This document shows, piece by piece, positions 274 through 48,115 of a stretch of DNA of 64,000 nt (its first letter is position 1; each line of letters opens with the position of its first letter). Made by a program: the position numbers and the translations under genes. A model generated the notes under the pieces. The model was not told where the DNA came from. It worked only from the letters and a program-made list of their open reading frames with translations, and made no database searches. The stretch is taken from assembly GCA_965285935.1 (NCBI GenBank), contig OZ260666.1, positions 3,162,001 through 3,226,000 on the forward strand, read 5' to 3'. The stretch is from Ophelia neglecta. Its lineage: Eukaryota.

Positions 274-2821
274 CGGGCCACTGCTGATTATCTGGTCCAA
301 ACTTAAATACAAACAGCTTTCTATAAATTTTCATTATAAAAACCTATCCATCAAATGTTTGAGTACTTGACAAAATTGATGATTCTTTAAAACAGGTTCC
401 CTTCAAAGATATGTTTATACTGCTGTCAAACAAGTAACTATAAGACGGTGATAAATGCACCGTTTGAAATATAGACATATCGGTATGCCAAGCCGGCCAA
501 AAGGAGGAATGCATATACATCGCGTTTTATGAGCATCGCGCGAAAATTTAGATCCCGGCAGTGTAAAATGACACACCTGTGCTTTTTATACTAACTCATC
601 ATCATTTAGTTTACCTATTTTTCTTCAAATAATTTTTTCGAACAACAGAAACAGCCGTTAACTATTATCTATATACTTTGTATCTTAGCTCATTCGTACA
701 TATGGCGCCTTTACTTGTGACACAAAGCCCCCAAACCCCATGCAATCCCCAACAACCCACCCCCAAACTGATGCCACCAAATTCCATATTTTTCTTGAGG
801 TCACATATTACAATTAGACCTAAAGCCTCAAGGAAACTGGCATTTAAAAAAAAACATTGTAATCGTTACAAATTCCATATACAAAGTAAATCATTATTCA
901 ACACGTCTGACGGATATATACTTGAAAGATAAAGATATAATATTTGCTGCAATTCTTAATAACTAAACAAATAAGTACGATTTTATTTTTGAAAAAACAA
1001 TTGGTATGAGTAGTTTTATATTTAGATTTATATACAGTGCATTAACCAGGGTTACTGCTTCAGTGGAGTTATTAAGTGGTGTCAAATTTACTACACCACG
1101 AATTGCAATAACGAAACCATTCGATGTACAGAAGAAATGTACTAATATTGAAATCAGATGGTCATCAAATGTTAAACCTTAGGCCATGAAAAATACAAAC
1201 TTTAGTTGGCCTGCTCGCGCGCCTAGCTGTTTCCTCCAATTTCTCTCAACAAACAATGTTTTGGATTGTTGTTGGTACTCAAGAAAGTTGCGGAATTGTT
1301 TTTGTTTTGATAAATGATTTTAGTTGTGATCAAATTATATCTTAAACTTAAGAGAAAGAAACATTGCTTTGATTGTTAGTGGAAATTTAGCATGTATATG
1401 TAACCTTTGTTTATTAAGCTGATAAATAAGATATCTCTTTTGTGGGCTAAGTGAGTGCGTGTTAATTTTGCGCCGTCTCCCTAGCTTTTCGAAAACGCTG
1501 CGACACTAACCAAAGTTCATACTTTGCATTGTCTTGCTCTATTTATATATATATTCCGCGAAATTATTTCTAACCAGTCCTAATTTATCAGGAAGCAGTT
1601 GGGATGGTTATTTATTCTCTTTCCGATAATATTTTCAGTGGTATATGTTCAGGATGATAATTATTTTCCCGCGTTAGCTATGTTCATGGCACATTGGCAT
1701 ATTGACACCACACCCTGCCGCTCGTTAATGGCTATAAACCCTTCTTCAAGCATAATATTTGGTTAAAATAATATGACGTACGTAAATGGGTGTAAAGATA
1801 TGAAGGAAGCTGAGCGTTTCCCTCAACCTGGTTTAGAAATATTACAAAGTCCGCCCAATCAAGCATTTGGAAAGGTTGTCAAGTTACAAGTACATTGCGT
1901 CAGCTGTCAATGCCTTAGCAAAAACGAGCGCCCTATTCTTTAGAAAGGCCCACATCCCAGCAATGTTCCGGATTCCCACCCGTTAGGAATTCTGGCCCCA
2001 AGTGCCGATCAGATTTAAATATTGTTTACTAGTTTAAGTGACCAACTGCCTCCATGGTTCTGATGCCATGCACTGTCCAAAAGCAGTCCCCGATATCCAC
2101 CCAAATTTTCTAATAATATTCTATTCCATCCATAGTCCCCCATCCCGTCCAAAAGCGATCCAAGTTCCAAATCCCATTCGAGGCCCCCGATACTATCAAA
2201 TCTCTTCAATCGCATCCGGAGTCCCCGATCCTACCTAAAGTCCCCAATCACAAGGTCTCAGATCTCCCCCAAAGTTCCGGATAGTACCCGAGATCTGCGT
2301 TACCACCCAAGCTCCTGACCTTACCCAAATTCCTAAATTTCACCTAGTATGCCATGTTCCGCATAAGTCACCCGTCCCATCCATATAACCTAACCCTATG
2401 CTTGGATGGTGCTGACCAAATCGCCCTTGATTTTCTTCCCCGCCACTGATCTAGTCCCATCCATTTTACACAGCCCAATAGCAGATTTAAAGTGCCCAAC
2501 TCCCAAGTCCCCGGACCCAAAGTCTCTGATTCCATTCCCCATCCTTGTCCCCTTCCGCTACTCTTGGTCCTCTCCCTCGTCGCTGATCGAATCCAAGTAT
2601 CTCACTCACGAACGGGACTACTTTTTTTCTTCCGGCTCCTATCCACTCTAGCATACAGGTACCTCAGAGGGTCGAGAATCGAACGGAGGCCGGGATCATG
2701 AGGAGATATTCCTACAGAATTCATAAAGTTTGCTTTTAAATTTATATTTTGGTTGAGTGGATGTTAGTGATGCGGAATATAGATAAGATATCCAGCATTG
2801 CAGGGCTTAAGTTAATCAAGA

Positions 2822-3629
2822 GGCTTGGGGGTAAATACCAGGGCACGAAAAGTTCTCACTAGCGCTACATTGAAGTCCCTTTACTATGCTTTTTTATATC
2901 AATATCTTGACTACTGTGTGGACATATGGGGGAGTGCCTGTAAAACATATATTGAACCACAGTTTATCATACAAAAAAGAGCAATCAGATTAATATGTGG
3001 TACGGACCGACTTGCCCATACGGCACCATTATTTTTAGAAGAAAGAATTTTACCAATTGATAGTATTTACAGATATAAATTACAAATATTGTTATATAAA
3101 CTAATGAATGGAATCCTCCCAATTGTCATATCTAGTTTGTATAAATTTAATTATAACATTCATGGTCATAGTACTAGAGGATCCAATAGCCTACACCTTC
3201 CAATGGTTAAAACTAATGTAATGAAACGCAGTATTATATACCAAAGTGTCATATCTTATAACAAATATAGGTCAGTCATCAACTACAACTGTTCTTTGCA
3301 TTCATTTAAATCATTTGTTAAAACAGTGCTCTAGCATTCCACATCAATAGTATGTACCAATATATCCCTAAAGCATTACCAGCACTCCTTTTGAATATTT
3401 TATATGAAGAATACTGTACTCTTTTTATTTATTTTGTATTAGCAAAATCATGTGTCTGTTGTATATATTTGCACAGGGTTCTGATGTACGCCATGACCAA
3501 ACGTATACTAATTATGTTCTCTTTATGAGGCCCATATAAGCTCCTAGCTTTCGTGGTCGCTTATAGTGATTTATATATCATTGTGTAAATATTATATAGT
3601 AACAATAAAAAGGATTGTCATAAAAAAAA
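2822..3629 (+). mobile_element. 5'-truncated CR1/L2-group LINE 3' end
   Basis: ORF 2825-3334 resembles the post-RT C-terminus (LYYAFLYQYLDYCVDIWG...QKRAIRLI...HTAPLF...SFKSFVK), followed by AATAAA and an A-rich tail. The flanks join without the insert in the homologous copies near 35125 and 63600. Confidence 0.8.
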
Positions 3630-3829: not shown

Positions 3830-6453
3830 TCACATCTCACCTTGCCTGGCTGTATTCAAGTAAACCGGAGGTACTGGCATCCGACTCTCAGAATACCCGG
3901 ACGCGATAGAGCTGAAGCTACTAGAATATCCGTATTCACCGCTCTCTAGTAGGAAAACAAACATTTCAAACTTAAATCAGCGCGTTTTAAACAGGACAAC
4001 AACATTTCATTTTATCCTGGTATCCAAATCTGAATACATCATAAAATAAAATAAATTAAATAATCTTATTGTGGACATTGAATGAGGTCGAAACAAAATG
4101 TCTATACTATGAAATGTATTGTAGGATAAACTCGTGGTAAATATTCAAGATAAGGAAAGTCATAATGGATATCGGCTCACCGTCCATTTGAGGGTCAAAC
4201 ATGACGTTCTCTACCATGGTCGTGTCGTCATTTTCCTCATTATCGTCCTGACGGCCGGATTGCTGGTGATGGCAGCATGGCTCCTGACCGCAGCGTGGAT
4301 GGTGACCACACGATGGCTCCTGACAGCAGTACGGATGGTGACCGCAGAGTGGTTCGTGACGACATCTATGCACGTGATTGCCACTTGACACGTGACAACA
4401 GCGCTGCTCATGACGGCAACGTTGTTCGTGACAGCAGCCTGACACCTGACGACACATACGTTCGTGCGGACAGCTGAGCTCATGACAGTTTCTTTGCTCG
4501 TGTAGACAACCTGGTCTGGAACGACAGTGTTCGTCTGAAACGAGAATTGAAGTCGTTTGGGTTGAGGCAGCTCCATTTCTTTGTTTTGATTCTAGACCAA
4601 AAATAAGATTTATCTATACAGACATTCACCTTTGTCCTAGATTTTATGGCATGAAGGAGAGCATTTTGTTCTGTTATATATATGCGTTAAGGAATTATAT
4701 AAGACACTCACGTCGATAGCAGACCAGTATGATAAGGAGTACTACGGATATTAGGACACAAATTCCCGTGATTCCCACAATCAGTCCCAGAGTGACAGAA
4801 AGATGTACAACACCACCTGAAAAAAATCATAACTTCATGAAATAAACCAATACGATCGATGTATCAATTGATAGTAATTGCAGAAAAACACCAAATGCAA
4901 ATTTAGGGGAAGGGGGAGGGAAGTGTTGGTCTTCGGTCCACATTTTGTTTTAGCCAGTGTTTAGTAAGATGGGTTCAGCGGGGATCAGGGCGCTGAGTAT
5001 CGGACCTCACTCTGGGTGTGGACCATCATGCATACAGATAACCGATAACATGCACGTGTGAGTTCAATGACTTTCGGTACCTAAATTTGCAACGAGAATT
5101 TCATAGGTTTTAGAAACCACGTTGCTTAGCACGTTCAGTGTGCGTTGCTTACTTGAGTCTGACACTAGTGTAGAGCCAGCCTCTCTCCCTAGACAGGAGT
5201 ATTTATGGAACGGGTTCATAGTGCTGTGTTTCGCTATTATAAAGCTAGATTGGTTTGTTGTATTTCCGATAACAGCGCCATCTCGCAACCAAGTGTATGT
5301 CATCGGAAGTCGAACGTCTTCTGGCAAAGAGGTTGAAGTGACGTTACACATCAACTTAAAACCTTTTGTATCTATTTGGGCTGGAGATGGTTTTCCTGCA
5401 AAGAATCTGAATATGTTATCATTCAAATGAACCCAGCGAGGGCGATTAGTAGTAATAACGTGTGCTGCTTGGTATGACTCAAGAAGGAGCTTAATATGTT
5501 GACACATCGATTTTTCGCGGTTTTATTTACTGCTTTAGTGCAAGTATAAGAAAGAGCAACCTGTAGTTCATTTAACCAAGTATATCAAATATTGAAATTC
5601 GTCGAATCATTCATAAATTAATGAATTGCTCTATACAAAAGAAATATGTCCGCAGTTGCAAAATTAGTGTTATCTACATTGCTATACATTTCCCCTGGAG
5701 AAAAAAAATATGAACAAACAAAGGAGCGAAGATATTTAATACATGAGATACTACTTTAAGAGTTTAACCAACCCTGAAATATGCAATCTATGCATTGTCT
5801 AAGCGACTGTAATATATTAATAACTACATATATGAGACACTTCGTCAACAAGAAATAACATCTAATCTACACCTTTCAGGGCCGAGCGATTACGCAAAGG
5901 GAACTTACCCCAGACAAAAAGTGTATTGGTTTCACTATAGTTAGTACGACGACAGTTGTAGAGGCCAGCGTCATGTCTCGTGACATTTTTGAAGGTCATC
6001 TCTAGGCCGGTTTCAATTATCTTTACGTTGAGATGCTCACGACTGTATTTACTACTATTCCTTAATACCACACTCCCGTTCACAATGTTAAATGTGTTGA
6101 TATCGTTCTTATCAAAACATTTGAGTGGCTCTCTGCTATTTGTCTCAGGAAGATTCCACCACAATGTGGCCTTTTCACCAACATTCACTCTAGGGACTAT
6201 GCCTGAAGCAGCTGGAAATTGAAAGGCTAACTTTGTTTATTATTCTTTGCATACAATCTTAGTTCTTACCTTAAAAGCGGCCAGTTATGATGGATGATCT
6301 TGGGGTGAACACTTATGTACCAAATTAAAAATGTATTCTAAGAAATCTACAAACATCAATGTATAAAATCTGGTACTTACCACCAGGTGGTGTGCTCATA
6401 ACATCTGCTATCTTGCACAGACAGACTAATAGTACGATCGACTTTAACTCCAT
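3830..6453 (-). CDS. IgSF type-I membrane receptor, paralog A (~416 aa)
   Basis: Exons: 6453-6381 (signal peptide MELKSIVLLVCLCKIADVMSTPPG), 6211-5909 (V-like Ig, DAGLYNC), 5395-5153 (Ig2, LMC..YTWLRDG..YSC), 4816-4712 (TM), 4591-4181 (Cys/His-rich), 3945-3830 (ESGEYGYSSSFSSIASGYSESRMPVPPVYLNTARQGEM*). All introns are GT-AG phase 1 and the frame is open. Confidence 0.85.
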
Positions 6454-9771: not shown

Positions 9772-12036
9772 ATGATGAAGCCTATGAATATCATACTAAT
9801 CTTATTAACCTGCCAGAATATTTATGCGCTGGCCAGACAACCTGGAGGTAAGTAGAAAAATTATATAATTTGTAGATTGTAATAAGAATTAGACAAAAAC
9901 GTTTTCCAATAAGTGAGTCATTCGGCAAACATACTAGTAGCGTTAGGTTTAGGAAAAATATGTAATATGCCAAAGGAAAGCTTTGGCTCTCCCATTGAGA
10001 TTTTAGATGAGTTTTTCCTTACAAAACCAAAAACGGTATAAAATTTCCTAGCACTCTACAGAGGAAAGTGGTAATATATCAAGTATATTATGAAGCAGAT
10101 AAACATAATTCATAGCTGTATGTTGGGTGCTCACAAAATACTTCTGGGGAACTGGAGTTGATGAACATTACTGCTTTCATTGTCAGATATGTCTGATTTT
10201 ATAGTGTTGCAAATAGGTTATTGAGTATCATACTGCCACTGACTCGTGTCGCCACATCATCTTGTGTCCGTCTTTGGCCGTAAAGAATATTTCGACCTGT
10301 ATTGTTTGGTTAAGAGAATGTATTAATTTGGTCCTTTCAAAATGAAAGTTATTGACTACCTTTTCTTATGACATTTGTCAGCCGCCTATTGATTAAAGCG
10401 GCTAATTTAAAACAAAAAATATCGGAAGATAGTGTTTCGGAGACTTGCCGTATAAATACTCCCTCGAATAATTACTCAGTAAATTAGGTTAAACTTACCA
10501 GTTGATAATTGCATGAAAACTGGATTGTTAGCAAACAGGTAACTTTTATGATTTTCTCACCTACACGTCTAGAAGCAAAAACCAGAGTATACACTGGAAA
10601 CAACGCCAGTCTGTTATGGAGGCTGCCTGAAGCAAATATACAACCTGTCAAATGTTACTTCAACACAGAAACTAGTATATTTACAATCAAGGATTCCAAT
10701 GTAATATACAAGGGTGTCAACGTCTTCAAGGAGAGAATGAGCGGCACACTGACGAACAACACTTTTGAGATAACCTTGGTGAACGTCACCATGGAAGACG
10801 CTGGGACTTATATCTGCCGTAAAACGAACTATACCGTGACAAAGAAACTACTTGTCTCGCGTAAGATATGGTATTGTTAATGTTTCTGTAAAGAATTTTT
10901 ACATCTGTTTGTCTGGGGTAAGAGATGTAATTGTTAATGTTGAATATTGCTAAATACCATTAATTAACTTGAATACTTGTTCATTGAGGTAAGATATATT
11001 ACTGATAATGTATCAGTATATGAATTTAACACCTGCTCTCCAATTTTTCATTGTTATCCGATTTTACCTTCTTAATATAATAGTGTTTCGTCATGTGAAA
11101 ATAACTGTCAACTTTGATCTTATTCAAAGGATGAAAACACAAAACCTTTTTTGGAACTCAATGTTAAATGTCAAAGTGGCCATGGAGTCTAACTTACTGA
11201 AACATTACTGTCCATCTGTCCTATTTTGAACACATAGTTTTTTTTTGCTGTGGCTTTCACCATGCACAACACCTAACTACTTTTTATTGCTAGTGATATC
11301 AACTTTATATTTGCATATTTGTATTTGCACGTACTTATTTTGTTTGGTAGCTGGGGATTGATGTATGTTGGCCTGAAGCGGCTGGTACAAGATGATTTCA
11401 GGCCTATTGAATGGACTCTTCTTGTATTGAATAGTGATGTAGCTTTGTCTACCGCATAACCCTTTCTGTTTCTTACTCTCCTCTTCCATACAACTTGATA
11501 TTAAGACTGTTTCTCCGTGGTGCTTGTTTTTCGTGGTTACTCTCTGTACGCTGGAACAGACACAGGCGCTGTATTTTAATATATTTTTGTTCATATAGGA
11601 CTCACCGTTCGTTTACCGGATAAGAAGTTAGCCTCGTCAACTCAGTCCCCATTGGCTTTCCTCGCAATGATTCAATTACTCATAATACCTGTTATAGGGG
11701 TCCCCCTAACATTGGGCTGCTGTCTGTGTAAGTCTCTGTCTTTTTATTGATTCACGAATTTAAAAAGCCAGAATTGTAATCTTTGCTCCTGGCCATAACG
11801 CTTATTCATGGACGGTAAATTGAGATATTTAACCCATACTAAACTATACTTTCACAGTGAACCTAATTCAGTTAAGGTAGAAGACTATTGATTAGTCAAA
11901 ATCGTCATGCTTTACATTATAATGACAACTTCTGACAATTCTGAAACTTTGAAATAATAATCACCTTATTTTTCTGCCCTTTAGAACTGCAATAAAAAAA
12001 GGTGACCAGCCATCCACTGAAAAACATGAACAGTAG
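9772..12036 (+). CDS. Single V-like Ig domain membrane protein, paralog E (~187 aa), short Tyr-free tail
   Basis: Exons: 9772-9847 (signal peptide MMKPMNIILILLTCQNIYALARQPG), 10573-10860 (V-like: ASLLWRLP..VKCYF..DAGTYIC), 11599-11727 (stalk and TM PLAFLAMIQLLIIPVIGVPLTLGCCL). A tentative 19-nt exon 11858-11876 and last exon 11985-12036 give the tail LNLIQLRTAIKKGDQPSTEKHEQ*. The 3' exons are uncertain. Confidence 0.7.
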
Positions 12037-16020: not shown

Positions 16021-16236
16021 AGAATTTACTGCATATCATAAATAACGAGAGAGAGAGAAAGTTTACTTTCAAATGAAAGATGGGACGGCAGACAATCAGA
16101 AGGTTTATTCGTTTTTATGTAGTGGAAAAGAGGTTGGTGTGTCTTCCACCGGCTTTCTTTTGATGTTTTTGTCATTGGTAATAGTATATTGATACAAACA
16201 TATTTTTAGGTCTCGGTGAATTTAAGCTGGCCTATG

Positions 16237-19200
16237 ATGGAGACCAAGTCGATCGTACTGCTGGTTTGTCTGTGCAAGGTAGAAGGTGTTATGACTGCAC
16301 CATCGAGTGGTAAGTACTGGAATTTTATACACTGACGTATGTAGAATCTTAGAATCGACTTATGATTAGTCAAGAAGTGTACACCAAGTCTCACTCATTC
16401 ATCATGACTGATCGCTTTCAAGGGTATGTCGTTTTCCGACTATTATTCACATTGGAAGGGTGTTTTCGAATTTCAGCTTCTTCCGGCACAGTCACTAAAG
16501 TCACTAATAGAACCCTACAATTTGCAACTTCCACAGGCACAGTCATTCGAGTGAATATTGGCGACAACGCCACCTTGCGGTGGAAACTGCCGAAGGAAAA
16601 TAGCATAGAGCTCACAAAATGTTATGACACGAACATGATCAACACATTTAACATTGTGAACGTGACGGTGGTATTCAGGAGTGTTAATATGCGCCATGAG
16701 CCTCTCAGTTCAGGGACAAACGAGATCAGCCTAACGATGACATTGACAAATGTCACGAGAGAAGACGCTGGTTCGTACAACTGTCGTCGTACTAACTATA
16801 GTGAAACCAACACTGTTTTTGTCTGGGGTAAGTTCTCCTTTTGATTTTTCTTGACACTGACAGACCATGTGTCTCCTTCTTTTGTGCTTTTTTTGGCTAC
16901 GTAAAAAACAATCTGTGAAGTAGTACATATATTGTCGGACTTTGGTTCTTAACCCTGAAAGAAATAGAATGTTATTTCTTTTTTTTTACCAGGTTCCTCT
17001 TATATCTATTCGTAACTGACTTTACAATCGTTGCAGTAATGTCCATCTTACCATATATAAGTATTTGATAAACCCTTAAATTATATTTTGATTAAGTCTC
17101 TCTTTCCCTTTGTTTGTGCGCCACTTTTTCTTTAAGGTAAAGAATTAGACAATGTAGAAAGAAGGAAAAGATTGCATACCCTAACTTTTTGCATTATCAA
17201 TACCATAAATTTAGTTACGATTGCTTCGTCAAGTTTCAGTATTGGATATACTTTTTTAATTATTAAAAGTTGAAACATCCTCATGATTACACTACAGAAG
17301 ACCACGTGAATTAATTTTTTCACATAGTCAACTACTCATGGATAATACCAACCGTATATTTAAGATTTAAATTGTCTTAGCCATATTTTATACCTATGCC
17401 TTTCGCTCGGTCCATATGATTACATTTTCCGATTATTTTCAGGAAGACCTTTCCCAGCCCTAATAGATTCAGAGGGCTTTAAGTTGATGTGTAACGTCAC
17501 TTCCACTTCTGTGCCAGAAGGCTTTCGAACTCCGATGGCTTACACTTGGTTAAGAGATGGCGCTGTTATCGGAAATACCTCGTTCGAATCTAACTATATG
17601 ATTCCGATATGGAACATTATGAACCCGTTCCATAAATACTCCTGTCTAGGGAGAGAGAATGGCTCTACACTAGTGTCAGACTCAAGTAAGTAACACATAC
17701 TGATCGTGCTTAGCTGCGTGGCTACCAAAACCCATGGAAGTCACAATGCACTGTTGGGTACCGAACGATAATTAACTAAGACGAGTAATGTGGATTTTAC
17801 ATCAGTTTCTGCAAGCATTGCTGAAACACCATTAAAATGAAACAGTTTAAACTTGGTTTAAGTCATCAAGTAATTTCAATTGATATATCGATGTTATGCG
17901 TTAACGATCCGATAATGAGTATGTTTTTTTTCAGGTGGTTTTGTGCAGCTTCCTGTTACCCCAGGCCTGCTGGTGATGATCACGGGATCCTGTGTCCTAA
18001 CCTTACTACTTGTCTTAGTCATACTGCTCTGCTATCGACGTGAGTGTCTTGTCATATCTTCAACCTCGCATTTTATGTTTCAGATTCCCTGTATAACGGA
18101 AATCGTGCTTAGTAAAATAGAATGCATACTCTGGGGATCAAATTATGTATAGAAGAGACATAATCATGCTTTTCGAAACCGTAGTGTGACATTCCGTACT
18201 TAGGAGTATGGGTGCAAAGGGTGAAGCTTTTCATCCGGAAAATCCATCAGGGCTACGCAGAATTTTAGTTACTTAGACTCTTAATCAAAGATTGGACAGA
18301 CCATAATTAAAGAATCATTCCATCAGTCCGTATTCCAAAAATAAGAAGGTCATATTTAGCATTTAAACGCTTCAACGCAAAGAGGCCCTTTTACAATACA
18401 CGTGTTAAAGAAATCCCCACACAGCTTGTTTAAAAACAATGAAAGTAAACATAATAAACTACCTAGTATTACAAAATGCTAAGGTTCTTACTGTATTACA
18501 TATTCGTTGATGTAGTTTACTAAATGGGTCAAGCATACTATCTAAGAAAATCAATATTTTAATGCACCAGTCTGAAATTAGCCAAATTTCTCTTTCATGC
18601 TACACAGTCTGATATAAATAGATCATATAAGATTTATTTCTCAATCAGATAATCACATCTTTATTTTGGTATAGAATCAAAACTAAGACAAGGAGACCGT
18701 CACCAGGCAGACAGCTTTCATGAACGAAGGCGTCGTCAGGAGTCATGCTGCTGTCACGAACAACGCTGCCGCCACGATCCAAACTGTTGTCACCAGTCAA
18801 GGGGGCATCACGAGTCTGGCTGTCGTCACGAGGCACCCTGCCGTCACCGGCCACACTGCTGTCAGGAGCCATCGTGTGGTCACGATCCACGCTGCGGTCA
18901 GGAGCAATCGTGTGGTCACCATCCACGCTGCGGTCAGGAGCCATCGTGTGTTCACGATCCACGCTGCGGTCAGGAGCCATCGTGTGGTCACCATCCACGC
19001 GGTGGTCAGGAGCCATCCTGCCATCACCAGCCATCCGGCCGTCAGGTAGATAACGATGATGATTACGACACGACCATGGTAGAGAACATCATGTTTGACC
19101 CTCAAATGGACGGTGAGCCGATATCCATAATTACTTTCCTCATCATACATTTATATTCATCCCCGGCACCTTTTACTGAATTTGGGTATAAATATTGTTT

Positions 19201-19654
19201 GAATATTAAGTGTGGGTGTACTGTATGGTTCAACAGCTGCAATAAATAACTTTTACCTCAAAGCTATTTCTGAGAAGAAGAGATAAATGAGAGAATGCGC
19301 AGTGAGACCAGCTGAGCCACTGTCAGCGCACAATTGAATTTAAACTACATGCAAAAGTAGTTTTTAACTAAAAAATAAATATAATACTAAGGACCAATAT
19401 ATCCCACGATATATTTTCATGGTATAAACATTTCGATTTGACAACCTTCTCTTCTCAAATTTCTGTTACAACTTTATTTCATTCGACGTCTTTCATTACA
19501 GTTAGAATACTGTTGCAAACTTATTGTTTTCCAAACAGAGGTCAGTGAGTTTGGACAGTCTAATACATTCAGACCTATCGCGTCCGGGTATTCCGAGGTT
19601 TGGGTGCCAGTACCTCCGCTATCTGGGAATACAGCCAGGCAAGGTGAGAAATGA
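16237..19654 (+). CDS. IgSF type-I membrane receptor, paralog B (~441 aa), ITIM-bearing
   Basis: Exons: 16237-16309 (signal peptide), 16477-16827 (V-like), 17443-17685 (Ig2), 17935-18039 (TM), 18675-19112 (Cys/His repeats, CGQEPSCGHHPR x~4; this frame is not in the ORF track), 19539-19654 (EVSEFGQSNTFRPIASGYSEVWVPVPPLSGNTARQGEK*). All GT-AG phase 1. Confidence 0.85.
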
Positions 19655-24597: not shown

Positions 24598-27500
24598 ATG
24601 GGGTCCGAGTTGATCGTCCTACTTCTATGTCTGTGCCATGTAGCAGATGTTATGACCGCACCAGCTAGTGGTAAGTACCGCACCACCTAGGGGTAAGTAC
24701 CGCACCAGCTAGTGGTAAGTACAGCACCAGCTAGGGGTAAGTACCGCACCACCTAGTGGTAAGTACCGCACCACCTAGTGGTAAGTACCACACCAGCTAG
24801 TGGTAAGTACCGCACCAGCTAGTGGTAAGTACCGCACCAGCTAGTGGTAAATACCGCACCAGCTAGTGTAATTTACCACACCAGCTAGTGGTAAGTTCCG
24901 CACCAGCTAGTGGTAAGAACCGCAACAGATAGTGGTAAGTACCGCGCTACCCAGTGGTAAGCACCGTGCCGCCTTTGTGGTAAGTACCCAACCACTTTGT
25001 GGTGAGTACCACGCCACCTTGTGTTAAGTACCCATCCATCTAGTGGTAAGACCCAGAATGGTGTAATGACTTGGGTTAGTAAGGTATTGGACGCCTTAAT
25101 ATGTCTGTGTTTAAAGGATAAAGATAAAGGTGTTTTCTGAATCATATTCACATTTGAAGAAGGCAAACATTATGAAGATGGATTTATTTATAACTTATAG
25201 AACCCTACAATGTGTAACTTCCACAGGTACAGTCACTCGAGTGAATATTGGCGACAACGCCATCCTGCGGTGGAAACTGCCGAAGGAAAATGACATAGAA
25301 CCAACAAAATGTTATGACACGAACAAGAACAACACATTTAACATTGTGAACATGACCGTGTTACCCAAGAGTGGTAACTTCAGCCTGGGCTTGTCTGAGC
25401 TTTTGAATGCAGGGAGAAACGAGATCAGCCTAACAATGACATTGACAAATGTCACGAGGGAAGACGCTGGTTCGTACAAATGTCGTCGTACTAGCTATAG
25501 TGAAACCAACACTGTTTTTGTCTGGGGTAAGTTTCCTTTGGGTTTTTCCGTGGCCCTGAAAGACTATGTGTCCGATATTTTAATTGGCGACTGAAAAAAC
25601 AATCAGTGAACTAGTAAATATATCGTCGTATTTTAGTATAAGTAAGACTTTCTTAATGATTTCTTTCATTAAATGTCTCCTCCCGTTTATTTTCTTCATG
25701 GTGAAGAATAGGACAATGTAACTCTCCTTTTCTAGAAGGAAAAATAAATATGCAACCTCAAACGTGTTTAATAATCGATATGAAAATAAACTATACTTCG
25801 AGCCATCCAGCAAACCATTAATCATAACATTTAGGTGTTCAAATATTTTACTGTTTTATCATATATATCAAGTAGTATCTTTAAATTTTAAAATGGTCAA
25901 GTAACTGCTATATTTTATACTTATCGCCCTCACTGGGTGCGATGGAATGAATTCATATCATTATGTTTGCGTTGCAGGAAAACCAACTCCAGCCATAATT
26001 GATACAGAGGGTTTAAAATTAATGTGTGACGTCATTTCCACCTCTCTACCAGACTACGTTCGACCTCCGATGACTTACAGTTGGTTACGAGATGGCGCTT
26101 TAATCGGAAAAACCACGGATGAGTCTACCTATACGATACCCATACACAGCATATTTAACCAGTTCTCTGAATACTCCTGTCGAGGGAGGGAGTATGGCTC
26201 AAGTCTACACTCAGACTCAAGTAGGCAAAACACATTAATAGTGGCTAGCAATATGGCTAAGCAAAACTGATTAAATTCATATCGACAACTTGCTATGGAA
26301 CGCTTGTATATTGGCGAACAGGGTATATTTGTCCAATGTGCTGCAACCCGCTGCCAAAAGTACCAATTGGAAAGCTGATAAATCCTTTGTCATGTACGAG
26401 GGGCGGAGAGGTGGGAATTACAGTCTATTAAGAGGTCGATCCCAAGTTTCGGAAATACTCCTGCCCCCCCCCCCCCCCCAACCCCGCAACTTGTATAGGG
26501 AGTATGTTAATCGTATGGTCAATATTAACATTACACACTATTTTGAACAATATACAAACGAGTTCTGCTATAATCCGCTTGCAGAACCGGATTGTCTACA
26601 ACTTTCCTACCCCTCGATCGTTTGTGTTTATTATACGAATATGAGCGTTTGTGTTTTAGGTGGCTCTGTACGGCTTCCTGTCTCTCCAAGACTGGTGGCG
26701 ACAATCGCAGGATTTTGTGCCATAACAATCCTTACACTACTTGTCGCACTATCCTGCTGTCAACGTGAGTGTATTTTCATTTCTTCAAAGTTAAGCACGT
26801 GTTCATATGCATTAAACTCCCTTGATATCATCGCAACCGTATCTCAATATTATAAATAACATTACTTGAGGGACTGACATAACAAGAATTCACAAAGATC
26901 TATTAGACTAAAGTTTAACACTGCTTTTATATTACATGTACATAATATAATATTATCTTACTGCCATTTTATCTTACACTATCTCGGCGCATCAAATTGT
27001 TATCTTTCCGAATCAAATAATCTTATTTTAATTTTGTTCTAGATTCAAAACAAAGAAAGCGAGCTGCATCAAGTTCCGTCACAAACGAACACGATCGTCA
27101 GAAGTCAGGTTGTCGTCACGAGAAACGCGACCGACACGAGCCAGGCTGCCAACACGAACCCATCTGTCGTCAGAAGTCAGGCTGCCATCATGAACCTATC
27201 TGTCGTCAGAAGTCAGGCTGCCATCATAAACCCATCTGTCGTCAGAAGTCAGGTTGCCATCACGAACAACGCTGCCATCATAGCCAAAGCCGTCACGAAT
27301 CAAGCTACAATCAAGCACCTAGTTGTTGTCACGAGGAAGGTTGCCGACCTAATCCCCGCTGTCTTCAAGAGACACTCAGCCGTCATGAGTCAAACCCCCA
27401 TCTGGAGACGACACTCCATGGTAACGAGCCGCCCAACCGTCAGAACAATGATGAACATGTTGAGAGCATCACGGTAGAGAAGAGCGCCACGTTTCAGCCT

Positions 27501-27849
27501 CAATTGGAGGGTGAGTTTAAGGCCATTATTTGACCGGCTAGTATAGTGAAGTGTTTCCGCGAGCTCTCATTATCCTGCCTGACATCCCCATTTGTCAGAC
27601 TATTCCACTGACTAAATCAAGCGTCCAATATCCTTCAAACTTCTTTACTTTTGCGTTAAAACTATTCTTTCACAATAATCGAAACTTCCTAGATGAATTA
27701 ATTAATGTTTCTTCATTTTCTAATTCGTGTCTTAACCACCAGAGGCCAGCGAGGGACAGCCTAGCACAGTCTTACCTACAGAAGTTCGATATTCATTTGT
27801 TTGGGTACCACGACCTCCGCCTTGTGTGCAGAAAGCGACCCAAAAATGA
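24598..27849 (+). CDS. IgSF type-I membrane receptor, paralog C (~431 aa), ITIM-bearing
   Basis: Exons: 24598-24670 (signal peptide MGSELIVLLLCLCHVADVMTAPAS), 25227-25526 (V-like), 25978-26220 (Ig2), 26660-26764 (TM), 27043-27510 (Cys/His, CRQKSGCHHEPI x3), 27743-27849 (EASEGQPSTVLPTEVRYSFVWVPRPPPCVQKATQK*). Confidence 0.85.
24655..25051 (+). repeat. 22-bp minisatellite spanning the exon 1/intron 1 junction of C (~18 copies)
   Basis: Unit ACCGCACCAGCTAGTG|GTAAGT, degenerating toward the 3' end. Confidence 0.9.
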
Positions 27850-32261: not shown

Positions 32262-34896
32262 ATGGAGTCAAAGCTGACCGTACTACTAGTCTGTCTGTGT
32301 AAGATAACAGATGTTATGACCGCGCCACCTAGCGGTAAGTACCAGAATTTACATTGTGACGTATGTAGATTTCTTAGCTTTAATAACTTTATGATGGGTC
32401 AAGAAGTATACACCAAGTCTCATTCATTCATCATAACTGGCCGCTTTTACAGTAACGGCGTTTTCCTAATCTTATTCACCCTGGAAGGAGGATTGTATGC
32501 ATAGAATGATAAACATAGAAAGCCTTTCTTCCAGCTTCTTCAGTCACAGTCACTCGAGTGAGTGTTGGTGAAGAGGCCACCTTGTGGTGGAATCTTCCTG
32601 AGACAAATAGCAGAGAGCCACTCAAATGTTTTGATAAGAACGAGATCAACACATTTAATATTGTGAACGGGAATGTGGTATTAAGAAATAATAGTAAATA
32701 CAGTCGTGAGCGTCTCTACGTAAAGATAATTGAAACCGGCCTAGAGATGACCTTCAAAAATGTCACGAGAAATGACGCTGGCCTCTATTACTGTCGTCGT
32801 ACTAACTATAGTAAAAGCAATACACTTTTTGTCTGGGGTAAGTTCCCTTTCCTATTCGCTCGGCCCTAAAAGGTGTAGATTAGATGTTATTTCTTCTTGA
32901 CGAAGTGTCTCATATATGTAGTTATAACTATATTACAGTCGCTTAGGCAATGCATAGATTGTCATGTTTCAGTGCAGATAAACTCTTAAAGTAGTATCTC
33001 ATGCATTAAATATCTAAGCTCCATAGTTTTTGAATTTTTTTCCACAAGGGGAAAGGTATAGCAACGTGGATAGCACTAATTGTCCAACTTCGAACATATT
33101 TCATTATGTTTATAGCAATTCATTAATTTACGAATGATTCGTCGGATTTTAATATTGGATATACTTAATTAAATGAACTACAGGTTGATCTTTCTTGTAC
33201 TTGCCCTAAAGCAGTAAATAGGTCTAGGTAATATAGATGCGTTACCATATATATCGTCTTCTTGAGTCATACCAAGCAGCACACGTTATTACTACTAATC
33301 GCCCTCGCTGCATTCATTTGAATAATTACATATTCAGATTATTTGCAGGAAAACCATCTCCAGCCCAAATAGATGCAAAAGGTTTTAAGTTGATGTGTAA
33401 CGTCACTTCAACCTCTTTGCCAGAAGACGTTCGACCTCCGATGACATATACTTGGTTGCGAGATGGCGCTGTTATCGGAAATACCACAAACCAATCTAGC
33501 TTTATGATAGCATTACACAGCACTATGAACCCGTTCCATAAATACTCCTGTCTAGGGAGAGAGGCTGGCTCTACACTAGCGTCAGACTCAAGTAAGCAAC
33601 GCACACTAGTAGTACTAACCAACGTAGCTTCTAAAACCGATGGAAATTCCCATTGCATGTTTTTGCACCGAACGTCGGTGAACTAATACGCGCATGTCCA
33701 GTTTAATCGGCTATCCATATGTATGATCGTCCCAAGCCAGAGTGAGGTCCTATCCTCAGCGCTCTGGCCCTCTCATCTTGTAGCGTCTGAAATAAAATGT
33801 TGGCTTAAGACGGGCCTATCTACTACTCTCTCTCTCCCGTCACTTCAATTTGAATTTGGTGTTTTTTTGCAATTACTATCAACTAATATTTGATTTGAAT
33901 ATCATGTTTTCAGGTGGTTTTGTACGTCTTCCTGTCACTCTGGGACTACCGGGAATCACGGGATTTGGTGTCATAATATCCGCAGTACTCCTTATCATAC
34001 TGGTCTGCTATCGACGTACGTGTCTTTTATCTTGAAAGAGAATTCCGCGCCATCGTGTATTGTACTTTCTGAGCGCATATTCCCCGATCGAACAGAACAA
34101 AATGACCTGATTTCTCCTCCGTGTCATAAAATCTGAAACATTTCTTGCGCTAGCAAATAATTACAACTTAAATTTGATCTAGGATCAAAACAAAGAAATG
34201 AACCTGCGTCAACCCAAACGACTTCAATTGTTGTCACAGACGAACACGGTCGTTCCAGACCAGGTTGTCTTCACGAGCAAAGAAACTGTCAAGAGCACAG
34301 CTGTCCTCACGAACGTATGTGTCGTCAGGCGTCATGCTGCTGTCACGAACAACGTTGCCGTCATGAGCAGCGCTGTTGTCACGTGTCAAGCGGCAATCAC
34401 GTGCATAGATGTCGTCACGAACCACTCTGCCGTCTACAGCCAAGCCGCAATCAGGAACCATCGTGTGGTCACCAGCCATCCGGCCGTCAGGTAGATAACG
34501 TTGAAGACTACGACACGACCATGGTAGAGAACATCATGTTTGACCCTCGAATGGACGGTGAGCCGATATCTATTAAATTCCCCTTTCATAAATTAATATT
34601 CATCAAGAATTTCTAATATCCTACAACATATTTTCATAGTAGAGATATTTCGTTTTGACCACCGCCTTTTTCTTTTAATATTATATATTGTATGTTTATT
34701 ATATTTTATAAATTTCCTTATTCAGAGTAAGAATTCCAGAATTTTGTGATATGATGTTATCCTGTTAGCAACGCGCTGGTTTGAGTTTGAAATGTTTGTT
34801 TTCCTACTAGAGAGCGGTGAATACGGATTGTCCAGTAGGTTCAGCTATATCGCGGCCGGGTATTCTGAGGTTCGGTTGCCAGTACGTCCGCTTTAA
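32262..34896 (+). CDS. IgSF type-I membrane receptor, paralog D (~393 aa)
   Basis: Exons: 32262-32334 (signal peptide), 32535-32837 (V-like), 33349-33591 (Ig2), 33914-34015 (TM), 34183-34557 (Cys/His-rich), 34811-34896 (ESGEYGLSSRFSYIAAGYSEVRLPVRPL*). Closest to A. Confidence 0.85.
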
Positions 34897-39982: not shown

Positions 39983-42900
39983 ATGACATATAATATATCA
40001 AAGACACCGGTGATCCCCGCAGTCTTATGCTTGTTTATACTGCCACTCCCATATATCGCCGCCTCGTCAAAAAGCGAAGGTAGGTTCACTGTTATCAATT
40101 TTCACTCGTAACATACGAATATTTGTTTCCTGATAAGCCTTGGGGGGGGGGGGGGCAATAATACATAAAACTATATTACTGGAATAAATTCAATACAAAA
40201 CAAATGTGTTGGCTTATCCTACATTGCCTATTTATCCCTTAGGGTGATTAGGCAAAAAGAAAATCACAACGATTTTGGCTTTCACTGTCTAACATTCCGT
40301 TTGCTGGCACAATGCGCAGGTCATCCCTGACTACAGATAACCGACAGATCCAGTGGACGTTCTCTTTTTAATATAACGCTGTGCGGTGCAATTGTTTCCT
40401 TTTGATCCTCATTCTTAACATGTTCATGGTCTATTTAAATTTCCAGTATGGCTCCAGCGTCCCGGCCAAGTGTACGCTTGTGTTGGGTACACTGCCAAAC
40501 TACTCTGGAACTACAACCACAGCTTGGGAGAGTTTGATTCAGTATACTTTCACAAGATTCGCCCAGATTGGAGGTTCCTGGGTGGTAAGAACAAGAACGG
40601 CGCGCTATTGGTTGATATGCCTAGGGCTAACCTGGTTGAAGGGAGCACTTATGGGCTGTCGTTGACGGGAATAGTGATGGAAGACAGCGGAATATATGAA
40701 ATAGAAGTTTACCTGCAGCGCCCTTCCAAGGTGATTCACAACCAAGCAGAACTAATCGTGCTTATCCCATCAGGTACAGCCAAAATTTAAAATTTCGTAA
40801 CGGCTTACAAACTTAACACGATCAGGTTATTATTATTGTTGTATATGTAGATATAAACATGCACTGTACATATGCCTTTGTGTCTTTCAGCATGCCCCGA
40901 TCGACACCGATTTCAGCAGCCAGTCATCACAATAAGAGAGGCAATAGGCGGGTCGGGCAATGTAATACACATATATAATAACACACTGGAGGTGTCCCGG
41001 CCAGTGAATGTCAGCCTCATTGTTGCCATACCAACAGCCGACTCGCCTGTTACATGTACTATAACCCTGGAGGGAGTCCACATCCATACCTGCCAAGGGG
41101 GGTCAGACAATGTGGTTGAATGCGAGAAGAAATTCGCTCTAGGTCAAGGTCAACATCAGATAATAACCCTAAACCTGACCTTCATAGCCTACGAACCCAG
41201 CATTACAACACTCCATGTGTACACCAAACCAGGTATGCGGTCTTCATTGAAGATAATAATTTTGTTATGACCAAGTCGAGAACTCACCGGGTCACCCATG
41301 TTATTATTGACTGGGCGAGTGGCATGATAATCCGACGGCCATCCAATCTCCTTAAAACTACCACACCCTTGTAATATCATCTTGACTATATCAATGATTT
41401 TGCATTGACTGACATACTCTTGCCAATGAGTGAAACAAAGTTAAATGAGTATGCGCGTTCACAATGACCCCTACCTCGGCCTCTTATAGCTTATAGTTCA
41501 GCCTTACCAATGAACGAAGCCTATCACACAGCATTATTAAGCGCAATATGAGTATGAGGATAGGGTATTAAAACCAATCAAGATCAAAGGTTTTACCAAC
41601 TATAGAGATATGTCTATGGGCAAGATAGAATTTGAGTCTAACCATGATATTGTTATGTCCATTAACGATCACAAGGTGTCAAATCAAGCCATAATTAAAC
41701 ATTCATTTTAAATAGTCCGCTATTTGTTGGCATATGCGGCTTTTAATACAAGCTAGGCTTTTGCCCGGCATGTTTTGTTATTTTTTTCGCATCTTTTAAA
41801 ATAACCTATTTTTTATAATCACATGTCAGTCGCCCCAGATGGCCCTAGATATGACCAAGCGTCAACACAACACCTGGATACGGATTCCTCAGTATCAACA
41901 CCCACCACGGTGCTCTTATGGTCTAGCACTGTGACCCAGCAAGAGAATACTACTTCAGCCAACGAGACAGCTTATTGGTTGCACACCAGAGGGCGCAGTA
42001 TGACGACAGGGGAGGTGTCAGTTATCGCGATCTGTGCCATAGCGCCCCTTTCAATTCTGGGTGTGACCGTAGTTATGTACGTTATATGGAATCGTCACAG
42101 AACGGAAAAAGGACATCAGTCTAAGGTAATTTTGCCTCCACTAGCGCAATAGTTAAGTTTGAGTTTCACAGCTGTGGCTTTATTTGCAGTCACGCTAATA
42201 AAACATAACATGAAAATTCCAAGTATTTTTAAATCAAACGTCCGCTTTTATTTTTCGGTTATCAAACTGATTTTCAATCACTGGTCTAACCAAAACTAGT
42301 CAGCATCTACTTTTTCCATAAATAACATAAATACTGTGACCTAGTCCTAGGTGAGAAGTGTTAACGACCTGTCCGATCGTTAACAAAGAGCAGACACAAT
42401 AAGTTTATCGCTATGGGCAGTCATTTTGAAGTTGTCTTGTTTACTGTAAACCAAGAAATATTCACTAACAGGAAAACTTTCCTGATCAGATTTCACCATA
42501 TATTGCTTACATGCAATTTTGTGACTGAATAATTCTAAGTAGTGACTTCCTGTGAAACAAGCTACAGAAGGAGATAGCAAAGAGGCAACTTCCACGAGCA
42601 GGAAATATTTGTTATGATCGCGAAATTTTTATGGTCGCGATATTTTTGTGATTTTAAAAACCCCCATAGCACGAAACATGGACCATGAAAGTACCATCTT
42701 AGACACTTTATGTGATATTGGACATCCTTTATCCGTTTAAACTTAATGCAATTATATTTCAGCAGGACGCCGATTATGGAGATGGGGTAAATTGTCGACA
42801 CCCAGATAAAAACGCCCTATCTATGTCTACTACTGAAACTACTGAGGAGCCTGGCAGCCCACCACAAGCCCCGCCACGTCACTCGGCTCGAACAAACACG

Positions 42901-45900
42901 TCTGAGAGAAATCCGCCTGACGTCAACGTAACAAATGACAGTATACAACCAGCCCACTTGTCTTGTGACAACGAGACACCACCGACAGTCCCAGTTCTCA
43001 GCAACGATACCCCTGAACAATCAAATGTAGAAATAGACAGGGAAACCCCTGACTTATTAGTGAGTAATTCATTTTTAAATATTCAACCAATAAACAGATT
43101 AATTGTAGTTGCTAGCGAACACATGCAATACTTCAATTAACTTCTCGTGGTAACGTGTGCATTAACAATATTGGGATGCGATGTTGGTGTAATGGTGGGA
43201 CGATAAACAAAGAGCAGACACAATAAGTTTATCGCAATGGCCAGTCATTTTGAAGTTGTCTCGTTTACTGTAAACCAAGAAATATTCACTAACAGGAAAA
43301 CTTTCCTGATCAGATTTCACCATATATCGCTTAAATGCAATTTTGTGACTGAATAATTCTAAGTAGTGAATTCCTGTGAAACATAAGGTACAGAAGGAGA
43401 AAGCAATGAGGCAACTTCCACGAGCAGGTAATATTTGTTATGATCGCAAAATTTACATGGTCGCGATAATTTTGTGATTTTTCAATCACTGGTCTAACCA
43501 AAACTAGTCAGCATCTACTTTTTCCATAAATAACATAAATACTGTGACCTAGTCCTAGGTGAGAAGTGTTAACGACCTGTCCGATCGTAAACAAAGAGCA
43601 GACACAATAAGTTTATCGCTATGGGCAGTCATTTTGAAGTTGTCTTGTTTACTGTTAACCAAGAAATATTCACTAACAGGAAAACTTTCCTGATCAGATT
43701 TCACCATATATTGCTTACATGCAATTTGGGACTGAATAATTCTAAGTAGTGACTTCCTGTGAAACAAGCTACAGAAGGAGATAGCAAAGAGGCAACTTCC
43801 ACGAGCAGGAAATATTTGTTATGATCGCGAAATTTTCATGGTCGCGATATTTTTGTGATTTAAAAAACCCCCATAGCACGAAACATGGACAATGAAAGTA
43901 CCATCTTAGACAGTTTATGTGATATTGGACATCCTTTATCCGTTTAAACTTAATGCAATTATATTTCAGCAGGACGCCGATTATGGAGATGGGGTAAATT
44001 GTCGACACCCAGATAAAAACGCCCTATCTATGTCTACTACTGAAACTACTGAAGAGCCTGGCAGCCCACCACATGCCCCGCCACGTCACTCGCCTCGAAC
44101 AAACACGTCTGAGAGAAATCCGCCTGAGGTCAACGTAACAAATGACAGTATACAACCAGCCCACTTGTCTTGTGACAACGAGACACCACCGACAGTCCCA
44201 CTTCTCAGCAACGATACCACTGAACAATCGAATGTAGAAATAGACAGGGAAACCCCTGACTTATTAGTGAGAAATTCATTTTTAAATATTCAACCAATAA
44301 ACAGATTAATTGTAGTTGCTAGCGAACACATGCATTACTTCATTTAACTTCTCGTGGTAACGTGTGCATTAACAATATTGGGATGCGATGTTGGTGTAAT
44401 GGTGGGACGATAAACAAAGAGCAGACACAATAAGTTTATCGCTATGGGCAGTCATTTTGAAGTTGTCTCGTTTACTGTAAACCAAGAAATATTCACTAAC
44501 TGGACAACTTTCCTGATCAGATTTCACCATATATCGCTTACATGCAATTTTGTGACTGAATAATTCTAAGTAGTGACTTCCTGTGAAACATAAGCTACAG
44601 AAGGAGAAAGCAATAAGGCAACTTCCACGAGCAGGAAATATTTGTTATGATCGCAAAATTTACATGGTCGCGATAGTTTTGTGATTTTAAAAATGCCCAT
44701 AGCACGAAACGTGGACCATGAAAGTACCATCTTAGATAGTTTATGTGATATTGGACATCCTTTATCCCTTTAAACTTAATGCAATTATATTTCAGCAAGA
44801 CGCCGATTATGGAGATGGGGTAAATTGTCGACACCCAGATAAAAACGCCCTATCTATGTCTACTACTGAAACTACTGAGGAGCCTGGCAGCCCACCACAA
44901 GCCCCGCCACGTCACTCGGCTCGAACAAACACGTCTGAGAGAAATCCGCTTGAAGTCAACGTAGCAAGTGACAGAATACAGCCAGCCCACTTGTCTTATG
45001 AAAACGAGACACCACCGACAGTCCCACTTCTCAGCAACGATACCCCTGAACAATCAAATGTAGAAATAGACAGGGAAACCCCTGACTTATTAGTGAGTAA
45101 TTCATTTTTAAATATTCAACCAATAAACAGATTAATTGTAGTTGCTAGCGAACACATGCATTACTTCATTTAACTTCTCGTGGTAACGTGTGCATTAACA
45201 ATATTGGGATGCGATGTTGGTGTAATGGTGGGACGATAAACAAAGAGCAGACACAATAAGTTTATCGCTATGGGCAGTCATTTTGAAGTTGTCTCGTTTA
45301 CTGTAAACCAAGAAATATTCATTAACAGGAAAACTTTCCTGATTAGATTTCACCATATATCGCTTACATGCAATTTTGTGACTGAATAATTCTAAGTAGT
45401 GACTTCCTGTGAAACATAAGCTACAGAAGGAGATAGCAAAGAGGCAACTTCCACGAGCAGGAAATATTTGTTATGATTGCAAAATTTTCATGGTCGCGAT
45501 ATTTTTATGATTTTAAAAACGCCCATAGCACGAAACATGGACCATGAAAGTACCATCTTAGACATTTTATGTGATATTGGACATCCTTTATCCGTTTAAA
45601 CTTAATGCAATTATATTTCAGCAGGACGCCGATGATGGACAAGGGGTAAATTGTCGACACCCAGATGAGGACGTCATATCTATGTCTACTACTGAAGAGC
45701 CTGGCAGCCCACCACATGCCCGGCCACGTCACTCGGCTCGAACAAACACGTCTGAGAGAAATCCGCCTGAGGTCAACGTAACAAAAGACAGTATACAACC
45801 AGCCCACTTGTCTTGTGACAACGAGACACCACCGACAGTCCCACTTCTCAGCAACGATACCCCGGAACAATCAAACGTAGAAATAGACAGGGAAACCCCT

Positions 45901-48060
45901 GACTTGTTAGTGAGTAATTCATTTTTAAATATTCAATCAATAAACAGATTAATTGTAGTTGCTAGCGAACACATGCATTACTTCATTTAACTTCTCGTGG
46001 TAACGCGTGCATTAACAATATTGGGATGCGATATTGGTGTAATGGTGGGACGATGAACGAACAGCTGCATAGAATTTGGAAAAATGTCTTGGATGAAAAT
46101 TAATAATTACTAAATTAAGAATAAAGAATGTATCGGCAGGACGCTGCCAGCTGACCAACACATTAAATTCAAACAAAAGACTAGTATAAAAGGTGCAGGC
46201 AACACCAGAGCTCGTGTTATGGTTATGAAAAACGAACGTAAGCGTGAAATTCCACCATTCTTTCGGTCCCTGATAAATATAACGTATTAGAATGCATCTA
46301 AAAAAAGTTAGCAAGACAAATGTGAAGCCAGCCCTTTAACAACAAAGTGAGCACCATTAAGATGCAACTACAGTAAGTGAACCAATTTGACAAATGTAGA
46401 AGATATTGAGCACCTTTCCTTTCGATATTGAGGGACACCTGTTTGGCGGGACAGTACCATAAACATCGTCAGGAGTTTATGCACTGTTGTTAAACCCTGC
46501 GTGTCTATATTAGATCAAAAGGTCATAATTATTATTGAGTCTGTCTATTTTCTACAGGTAAAAGAATTTGCAAGACAACCAGAACATGGTATAGGCGAAC
46601 AACACCCAACAGAAACGACAACTCCTTCCAATTCCAGCCTGAAAGATTATCCGTCCCTGTTTGATTCCCTGTCAAAAGGTCATCTGACTCCAACAGATAC
46701 CGTAACGGGACTGATACAGCAGAAGTCCTTGCCAGAACATTCTTCGTACGGGTCAGATACAGAGGCAGGGGATCATCCGTCCCAATTAGATAACGAACTG
46801 GGAAAAGGAAGTGCGCTCCATTTAGGTTCAGAGTCAGGAAGTCACACGTCTCAGCCATCTTGTTTGCCTCCGTCGAGTTCCGCATCAGAAGGCCGTTCGT
46901 CCCATTTGAAATCCTTGAAGGGGGGTCGAACATATCTGTCAAATTCCGTGCGAGGAGAATGTACATCTCAGCCGGCTTTAAGACAAGAAGATCGCCCGAA
47001 CAAGCCAGTTTCTAGGCAAAAACTTCGTCCGGAAGATCGTCCGTCACAGTCAGATTCAGGAAATGGAGATCATCAGTCACTGACGGGGTCAGGATCAGGG
47101 GATCGTCCGTCACAGCCAGGGTCAGTAGCAGGGGACCGTGCGTCACAGCCAGGTTTGGGACCAGGGAACCGTGCATCACAAACATGTTTAGGACCAAAAG
47201 ATCGTTCGTTCAATCCAAGTTCAGTGGCAGAATATCGTCAGACAAAACCAGCTACAAGCCAACGAGTCGCGACACACCTAGGGTCAGCAACAGGAGACTG
47301 TCCGTCACCAACAGGGTCAGGATTAGGCGATAATCAGTCACGGGAAGGTTTCAGACAGGGAGAGCTTGCGCCACAGCCAGGGTTAGAACAAGGAGATTGC
47401 CCGTCACAGACAGGATCAAGCCCAGGGGATGCAACGTCACAGCCAGGTTCAGGACCAGGAGATCATGCTTCACAGCCTGGGTCAGCACAAGGAGATACTT
47501 CGTCAAAACAAGGTCCGAGATTAGGAAATCAATCCTCACAGCCAGGTTTAGGAACAGGAAATCGTTCGTCACAGCCAGAGTCAGGGCTATACGTCTGTCC
47601 TTCAGAGACAAGCGCAGGACCAGGAGAGAATCCTGTGTCAAGGTCAGGTTTAGAACAAAAAACTAGTCCGCCACAGCAACCGTCAGGACTAGAAGATCTT
47701 CGCTCCAGGCCGTTTGCAGGACAAGAAGTCCGCCAGCCACAGCCAGTTTCAGGATCAGGCGGCCGTCCGTCTATGTCGGATTCTTATCCCGGAAAGGATC
47801 CATCCCAATCGAAATCCAAATCAGAAGAATGTCCATTTGTACGATCGGTTACTACGAAGGATGCAGCCATGGGCGGCATATTAGCACACCGCATCTCATT
47901 CATTACCAAGAAGCCTCCAGGAGCCCCTAATCAAGATAAGGTTATTGAAATGCTACCACAAGACCCTTCTTCGACTGACACGGATATTCCCACCACTATC
48001 AATACTTCTCCAACAGCCCCAGGTAAAACAGAAGGTTTGTTAACGGTTAGTAAAGAATAA
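39983..48060 (+). CDS. Ig-like type-I membrane protein F (up to ~1247 aa) with a very long repetitive cytoplasmic region
   Basis: Exons: 39983-40079 (signal peptide MTYNISKTPVIPAVLCLFILPLPYIAASSKSE), 40447-40773 (V-like lacking the B/F cysteines: KLLWNY...DSGIYEIEV), 40891-41232 (beta-rich domain), 41830-42125 (S/T stalk and TM VSVIAICAIAPLSILGVTVVMYVIW), four repeat exons 42763-43059, 43970-44266, 44796-45092, 45622-45909, and 46558-48060 (G/S/P/Q 11-aa repeats). Splice phases are compatible throughout. Confidence 0.7.
42270..46055 (+). repeat. Tandem array of ~826-bp exon+intron units (4 exon copies plus one partial intron copy)
   Basis: Exon starts at 42763, 43970, 44796 and 45622 (spacings 1207, 826, 826); the introns are near-identical. 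Confidence 0.95.
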
Positions 48061-48115
48061 GTAAGCTTTAGGGAACAAGACCCTTTGATCACGGACACGA
48101 CCACACAACGCCCAG

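Follow-up and report, generated by a model that had tools for sequence, protein, structure and literature searches.

The core of an immunoglobulin (Ig) domain is canonically formed by a cysteine on strand B, a tryptophan on strand C and a cysteine on strand F, and this Cys-Cys-Trp pin is regarded as nearly invariant in V domains. The 64,000-nucleotide stretch of the Ophelia neglecta genome analyzed here (the window) encodes V-like domains for which a preliminary description proposed that the first two of these residues have changed places. This raises the questions which strands carry the residues, how the two remaining cysteines may be paired, and by what route such a core could have arisen.

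Core residues and gene models in the window

The V-type Ig domain of the focal gene is encoded by an exon at 16477..16827 (+) with phase-1 AG/GT ends. A second in-frame acceptor allows an alternative start at 16537, and the paralogous exon at 25227 starts likewise. Trp17 (TGG, 16581-16583, +) occupies the canonical B-Cys site of strand B, Cys30 (TGT, 16620-16622, +) is located on strand C at what is likely the canonical Trp site, and Cys84 (TGT, 16782-16784, +) on strand F within the motif D-A-G-x-Y-x-C. Across 118 distinct domains from the same genome the three sites are occupied by W in 114, C in 112 and C in 117. The B-strand Trp, the C-strand Cys and the motifs quoted in the preliminary description are present in all five V exons of the window (5909-6211(-), 10573-10860(+), 16477-16827(+), 25227-25526(+) and 32535-32837(+)), and each of these exons has exactly two Cys codons, as had been stated; exactly two Cys occur in 100 of the 118 distinct domains. 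The W/C/C pattern at these three sites is conserved across the 118 domains at a median pairwise identity of 32%, so that recent duplication does not account for it. The signature L-x-W-x-L-P...K-C-[YF] suggested for the family proved too narrow, with K preceding the Cys in 48 of 134 domains. The Pfam V-set cut-off was passed by one of the five window V exons, and most matches spanned the E-F half alone.

The focal gene was modelled from DNA as six exons separated by phase-1 GT-AG introns and encoding 442 residues without interruption. A signal-peptide-like exon (16234..16309, +, judged by eye) precedes the V exon, and a C2-like second Ig exon with a canonical C-W-C core follows it (17443..17685, +). 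The remaining exons encode a hydrophobic transmembrane (TM) stretch (17935..18039, +), a cytoplasmic region with Cys/His-rich repeats (18675..19112, +, in the frame given by the TM exon phase) and a C-terminal segment that includes S-x-Y-x-x-V, which fits the ITIM consensus, and the stop codon (19539..19654, +). Intact six-exon genes were also found for paralog 1 (3830..6453, -), paralog 4 (24598..27849, +, with V-x-Y-x-x-V in the tail and a stop position counted from the translation) and paralog 5 (32262..34896, +). In total, four genes of the window are intact and encode receptors of the signal-V-C2-TM type with a Cys/His-rich tail, and in all four complete models the C-W-C second domain leads straight into the TM exon. 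Paralog 2 (9772..11727, +) appears to comprise a signal exon, the V exon and a stalk/TM exon (11599-11727), with boundaries set by eye; a C2 exon was looked for in this locus and none was found. The gene models rest on DNA sequence; three sequencing runs covered the introns and contained no joints, and were therefore read as DNA.

Several other features of the window were noted. Paralog 1 (V-C2-TM) and paralog 2 (V-TM, no C2) are arranged head to head, and further divergent pairs like this one are found in the cluster, for example at G000:C9:3323147/3327655, 3517222/3521951 and 3593652/3598145; these pairs are possibly paired receptors. The Cys/His-rich cytoplasmic repeat varies in length among the four full genes (18675-19112, 4181-4591, 27043-27510 and 34183-34557) and has a possible, putative role in metal binding or palmitoylation. 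A sixth Ig-like exon at 40419-40790(+) has a B-strand Trp and no F-strand Cys, a state similar to that of Alr or CD2, and is followed on its 3' side by a domain-sized ORF and a TM-like exon (ORFs 40857-41270 and 41805-42152). Judged by eye, the segment 49097-54066(+) is a non-LTR retrotransposon, with a 366-aa ORF containing zinc-knuckle-like motifs and a 1248-aa ORF, free of interruptions, that resembles an endonuclease/reverse transcriptase, and retrotransposon-like ORFs broken by stops are located at 57611-62474(+) and 2816-3334(+). At 42703-45990(+) and 46432-48737(+) a reading frame of about 145 aa is repeated four times in tandem and followed by a long Ser/Gly/Pro-rich ORF with ankyrin-like fragments (also by eye).

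Predicted fold, register of strand C and cysteine pairing

An AlphaFold model obtained with a 90-sequence alignment (pLDDT 81, pTM 0.73) contained strands at residues 3-8, 13-19, 28-31, 37-42, 45-48, 65-71, 80-86 and 89-98, and D was present as a short strand only. The model has the V topology including the C' and C'' strands, and the structural matches are V-type: CD4, TIM and pIgR domains ranked highest with Foldseek, and in a wide structural search the best match was Necl-4 (Z 12.4, rmsd 1.9, 89 aligned), with CRTAM, RIG-5 and CD96 next in rank. The predicted strands agree with the original assignment of the Trp to strand B and of the cysteines to strands C and F, with W17 in strand B (13-19), C30 in strand C (28-31) and C84 in strand F (80-86); the first Cys is thus placed on strand C and not on strand B. 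Compared with V-set residues listed in passages of PMC9546547, Cys23 on strand B is absent, being replaced by the Trp, and so is Trp41 on strand C, where the aligned site is the Cys and no conserved strand-C W occurs. Other residues of that list are kept among the 118 domains (Gly16 in 113, Asp98 in 107, Tyr102 in 101 with F in 14, and Cys104 in 117). For the region of the Arg75 salt bridge no column exceeded 50% Arg, and the D-strand region of the model is of low confidence.

The position of C30 relative to the canonical Trp was examined in several ways. An hhalign comparison with 123 canonical domains paired W17 with the B-strand Cys and C30 with the C-strand Trp at a probability of 97%, with low column confidence. 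A B-to-C spacing of 13 characterizes 112 of the 131 family domains and is also the most frequent canonical one (41/119); spacings of 11 or less occur in 5 of 119 canonical domains. Pro27, present in 70 of 134 domains, fits position W-3, where Pro occurs in 10 of 119 canonical domains, and not W-1 (0/119). In a sister clade with Ile in the C30 column the best local register score was obtained at W+0. A different register, in which the Cys would sit two residues past the Trp site at the end of strand C, the Trp site would be filled by a common hydrophobic residue and a C-F bond, if present, would be staggered, agrees with one MAFFT alignment with fish V domains, which counts against W+0: it placed R/K in the Cys column and the canonical Trp two columns ahead of it in 16 of 16 outgroup rows, and position 28 is indeed hydrophobic. 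This register would require B-to-C spacings of 7-13 with a mode of 11, against a canonical range of 10-18; it would also put Pro at W-1 and make the modelled strand C begin at the core residue, and it scored lower in the local register test, so that we regard it as unlikely.

The local test did not separate W+0 from W+1 in the Cys clade (-0.563 and -0.569), and HMMER aligned C30 with the outward-facing Cys of pIgR, which also counts against W+0. Together with the existence of clades that have a single F-Cys, these results agree with a W-C motif of the pIgR type in which C30 at W+1 would point outward, free or bonded to another chain, leaving C84 as a buried free thiol. We consider this very improbable: a third conserved Cys on C' as a partner was not found, the same column holds Ile in 26 sister-clade domains where the W+1 score is poor, and the mutual exclusion of C- and G-strand cysteines described below would be left unexplained. 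Mean-field DCA covariation (effective depth 82) was dropped as evidence on the C-F register, the 30-84 signal coming from near-invariant columns. Most register tests thus favour the canonical Trp site as the position of C30, with one alignment in disagreement, and we take this position as likely. The Trp41 and Cys104 sites of V domains are direct cross-strand neighbours. Consistent with this neighbourhood are the backbone-linked anchor network outlined in passages of PMC12051499 and the CD4 domain 2 bond described in parts of PMC4354306. At the Trp site, C30 would be the direct cross-strand neighbour of C84, an arrangement like that of CD4 domain 2.

Cys30 and Cys84 are the only two conserved cysteines of this extracellular domain, and the simplest interpretation is that they bond to each other. 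A C30-C84 cross-strand disulfide similar to that of CD4 domain 2 is likely. The two cysteines would be joined inside one sheet while the Trp would fill the core. A Cys close to the beginning of strand G is found in none of 134 F-Cys domains with a C-strand Cys versus 11 of 25 without one, a contrast for which a Fisher p-value overstates the significance, all 11 coming from one clade and not being phylogenetically independent. The pattern suggests that C- and G-strand cysteines may be alternative partners for one F-Cys. In a scan of Cys pairs in VH with an Ala23/Ala104 background, the accessible text of PMC10641266 does not list 41-104 among the rescuing pairs, which is mild evidence against an easy bond and would also be expected if the B-strand Trp is required. 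The C-F bond might also act as a redox switch, as proposed for CD4 domain 2, rather than mainly as a structural element; passages of PMC4354306 call cross-strand disulfides metastable and report functional reduction of the CD4 domain 2 bond. Near-invariance in more than 130 divergent domains and the presence of a core-filling Trp fit a structural role, and we hold the redox reading to be rather unlikely.

Family extent and evolutionary history

A search of the genome with the focal domain gave 150 scored matches among 337 candidates, mostly on contig C9, and two divergent query domains gave 139 and 150 matches. By hand count 56 matches from one divergent query were new, which brings the family to more than 200 genomic places; some near-identical copies among them may be assembly duplicates. 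At the B/C/F sites, 164 distinct domains taken from a part of these matches comprised 131 W/C/C, 22 W/I/C, 4 W/I/Y and 7 single variants, a sample that favours W/C/C, as 30 loci were taken from the divergent query against about 59 Ile-clade-like rows there. One member (L053) has lost both cysteines. A protein homology search found no family member. A search on the 1.84-billion scale returned mostly multi-Ig proteins, and only P0067 and P0151 are family members among the 150 listed matches, which are crowded by multi-Ig proteins and sample the range outside the source genome thinly.

Some loci depart from the common layout. L186 and L187 have two tandem V exons 5' of the C2 exon, and in L116, L092 and L144 the C2 exons seem to be shortened or to have no F-strand Cys. 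Loci L001-L019 combine close V exons (dS 0.15) with two far more divergent C2 types (dS 0.47), a mismatch that suggests exon exchange or gene conversion.

The preliminary description interpreted the core as a swap with a compensating Trp. This describes the end state well, but the history was probably stepwise, the W/C/C state probably not having arisen by a one-step swap. The sister clade from the same genome has the B-strand Trp and Ile on strand C, and its F-Cys is free, lost or accompanied by a G-strand Cys. Among 150 listed representatives, the best non-family domains were those of abalone-type proteins (P0063 and P0093, named Haliotis, and the similar P0068), which have a B-strand Trp, an F-Cys, often a G-Cys and, in our reading, a non-Cys core site on strand C. 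With a profile of the family C2 domain, the domains that follow in the abalone proteins were the top three matches (37.3, 27.6 and 20.9 bits; fourth match 19.4 bits), and the first unrelated domain ranked at 17.9 bits. Because the B-strand Trp occurs without a C-strand Cys in the sister clade, in abalone and in Alr, it likely came first.

A tree computed after masking of the trait columns contained three groups that each formed one side of a branch: a Cys clade of 62 rows (87/57), an Ile clade of 8 rows (99/82) and an abalone group of 8 rows (97/84). Its root was unstable. The simplest reading, which falls short of proof, is that the C-strand Cys was gained once on an older B-Trp background. 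The older lineage would have lost the B-strand Cys to Trp, leaving the F-Cys unpaired; one clade would then have gained a partner on strand C and others a partner on strand G, while some lost the F-Cys. The same order, loss of the B-Cys followed by gain of the C-Cys, is given for CD4 domain 2 in passages of PMC4354306. The masked tree joins the Cys clade, the monophyly of which reached only 87/57, to the abalone group and not to the Ile clade, which counts against this history. A true reciprocal swap, directly from a canonical C-W-C domain, would account for an end state that mirrors the canonical pin, and the unstable root leaves room for it; the three groups with a B-strand Trp and no C-strand core Cys offer a stepwise route, which makes a direct exchange quite improbable.

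Relation to known receptors and putative role

Considering the evidence as a whole, we estimate a probability of about three in four that the conserved residues and intact gene models found here belong to a large family of single-pass Ig-superfamily receptors whose tip domain has a predicted V-type fold, a B-strand Trp and a likely C-F disulfide, with a history that was probably stepwise and a putative recognition role. Loss of C30 with retention of C84 in two members (L003 and L074) counts against this explanation, as do the V-exon dN/dS values and the ITIM match in only two of four tails given below.

The closest structural precedent, CD4 domain 2 with its Cys130-Cys159 bond, shares the C and F cysteines, the loss of the B-Cys and a stepwise origin via an unpaired F-Cys, as far as described in the accessible parts of PMC4354306. 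From the same source, it differs in having Leu on strand B where this family has Trp, in being drawn as C-like where a V-type fold is predicted here, and in being confined to one gene of primates and muroid rodents, whereas the state is fixed in more than 130 domains of this family. According to passages of PMC9546547, domain 1 of Hydractinia Alr shares a V-set fold with the B-Cys replaced by Trp, Phe or Tyr, and the Alr proteins are likewise clustered single-pass receptors with ITIM or ITAM motifs in some tails. Alr domain 1 has neither core Cys, whereas this family has kept the F-Cys (117/118) and added the C-strand Cys; the Alr-like W/I/Y state is found in 4 of 164 domains, in the sister clade. 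As described there, later Alr domains have no paired Cys and include an Fn3-like fold, unlike the canonical C-W-C second domain followed by TM in this family. Sponge EV-set domains were rejected as a precedent, the canonical triad being kept in those described in parts of PMC11926128.

The Haliotis multi-Ig proteins share the B-Trp V domain, the retained F-Cys and a similar C2 domain next to it, and differ in the C core site, which holds Ile, Val or some other residue than Cys, in the frequent G-Cys and in their longer, multi-domain architecture. Two of the Haliotis-type domains have an extra Cys pair, read as C-C'. The vertebrate LILR, KIR and CD300 clusters share tandem expansion, a short ectodomain and tyrosine-based motifs and differ by their canonical cores; no orthology is claimed.

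Of the four modelled tails, two match the ITIM consensus [ILVS]xYxx[IVL] as defined in passages of PMC9546547, and in the remaining two the Tyr is retained and one position deviates. Tails at 16 distant loci, traced by motif, gave TM-like exons and no reliable signalling motifs. Two to five N-glycosylation sequons are present in 152 of 164 domains. Pooled dN/dS of the V exons came to 0.65 in a set of 16 close copies and to 0.50 in a set of 8, and that of the C2 exons to 0.64 and 0.41. The V exons thus show no surplus of amino-acid changes; pooled in this way, neither exon gave a sign of positive selection, and the values point to weak constraint. The tandem expansion, the sequons, the order V-C2-TM and the tyrosine motifs suggest, by analogy to Alr and the vertebrate clusters, that these proteins are variable recognition receptors. 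Their putative role would be self or non-self recognition with signalling via the tyrosine motifs, some of it inhibitory.

In searches of the main texts of an open-access literature collection, no paper on the W/C/C pattern or the family was found. The individual elements have precedents, the B-strand Trp in Alr and the C-F bond in CD4 domain 2, and we found no precedent for a V domain that combines them and in which the combination is fixed throughout a large family. The known exceptions found either lose the pin (Alr) or rewire one domain of one gene (CD4 domain 2). An inverted pin fixed across a family with over 200 genomic places, alongside sister clades that differ in their cysteine arrangement, provides a natural series for the rewiring of an Ig core, in a large receptor family that is barely visible to standard profiles (one of five window V exons above the Pfam V-set cut-off). 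Tentatively, and as something we hold to be possible rather than probable, these genes may belong to a lophotrochozoan superfamily of recognition receptors with hundreds of members, in which the core was rebuilt in three ways after loss of the B-Cys (C-F bond, F-G bond or no bond) with all stages kept in this genome. The W23/C41/C104 'inverted pin' would then be a stable alternative V core that, if this is true, would be transferable to antibody scaffolds, and the family would represent a major undescribed self/non-self receptor system in this animal.
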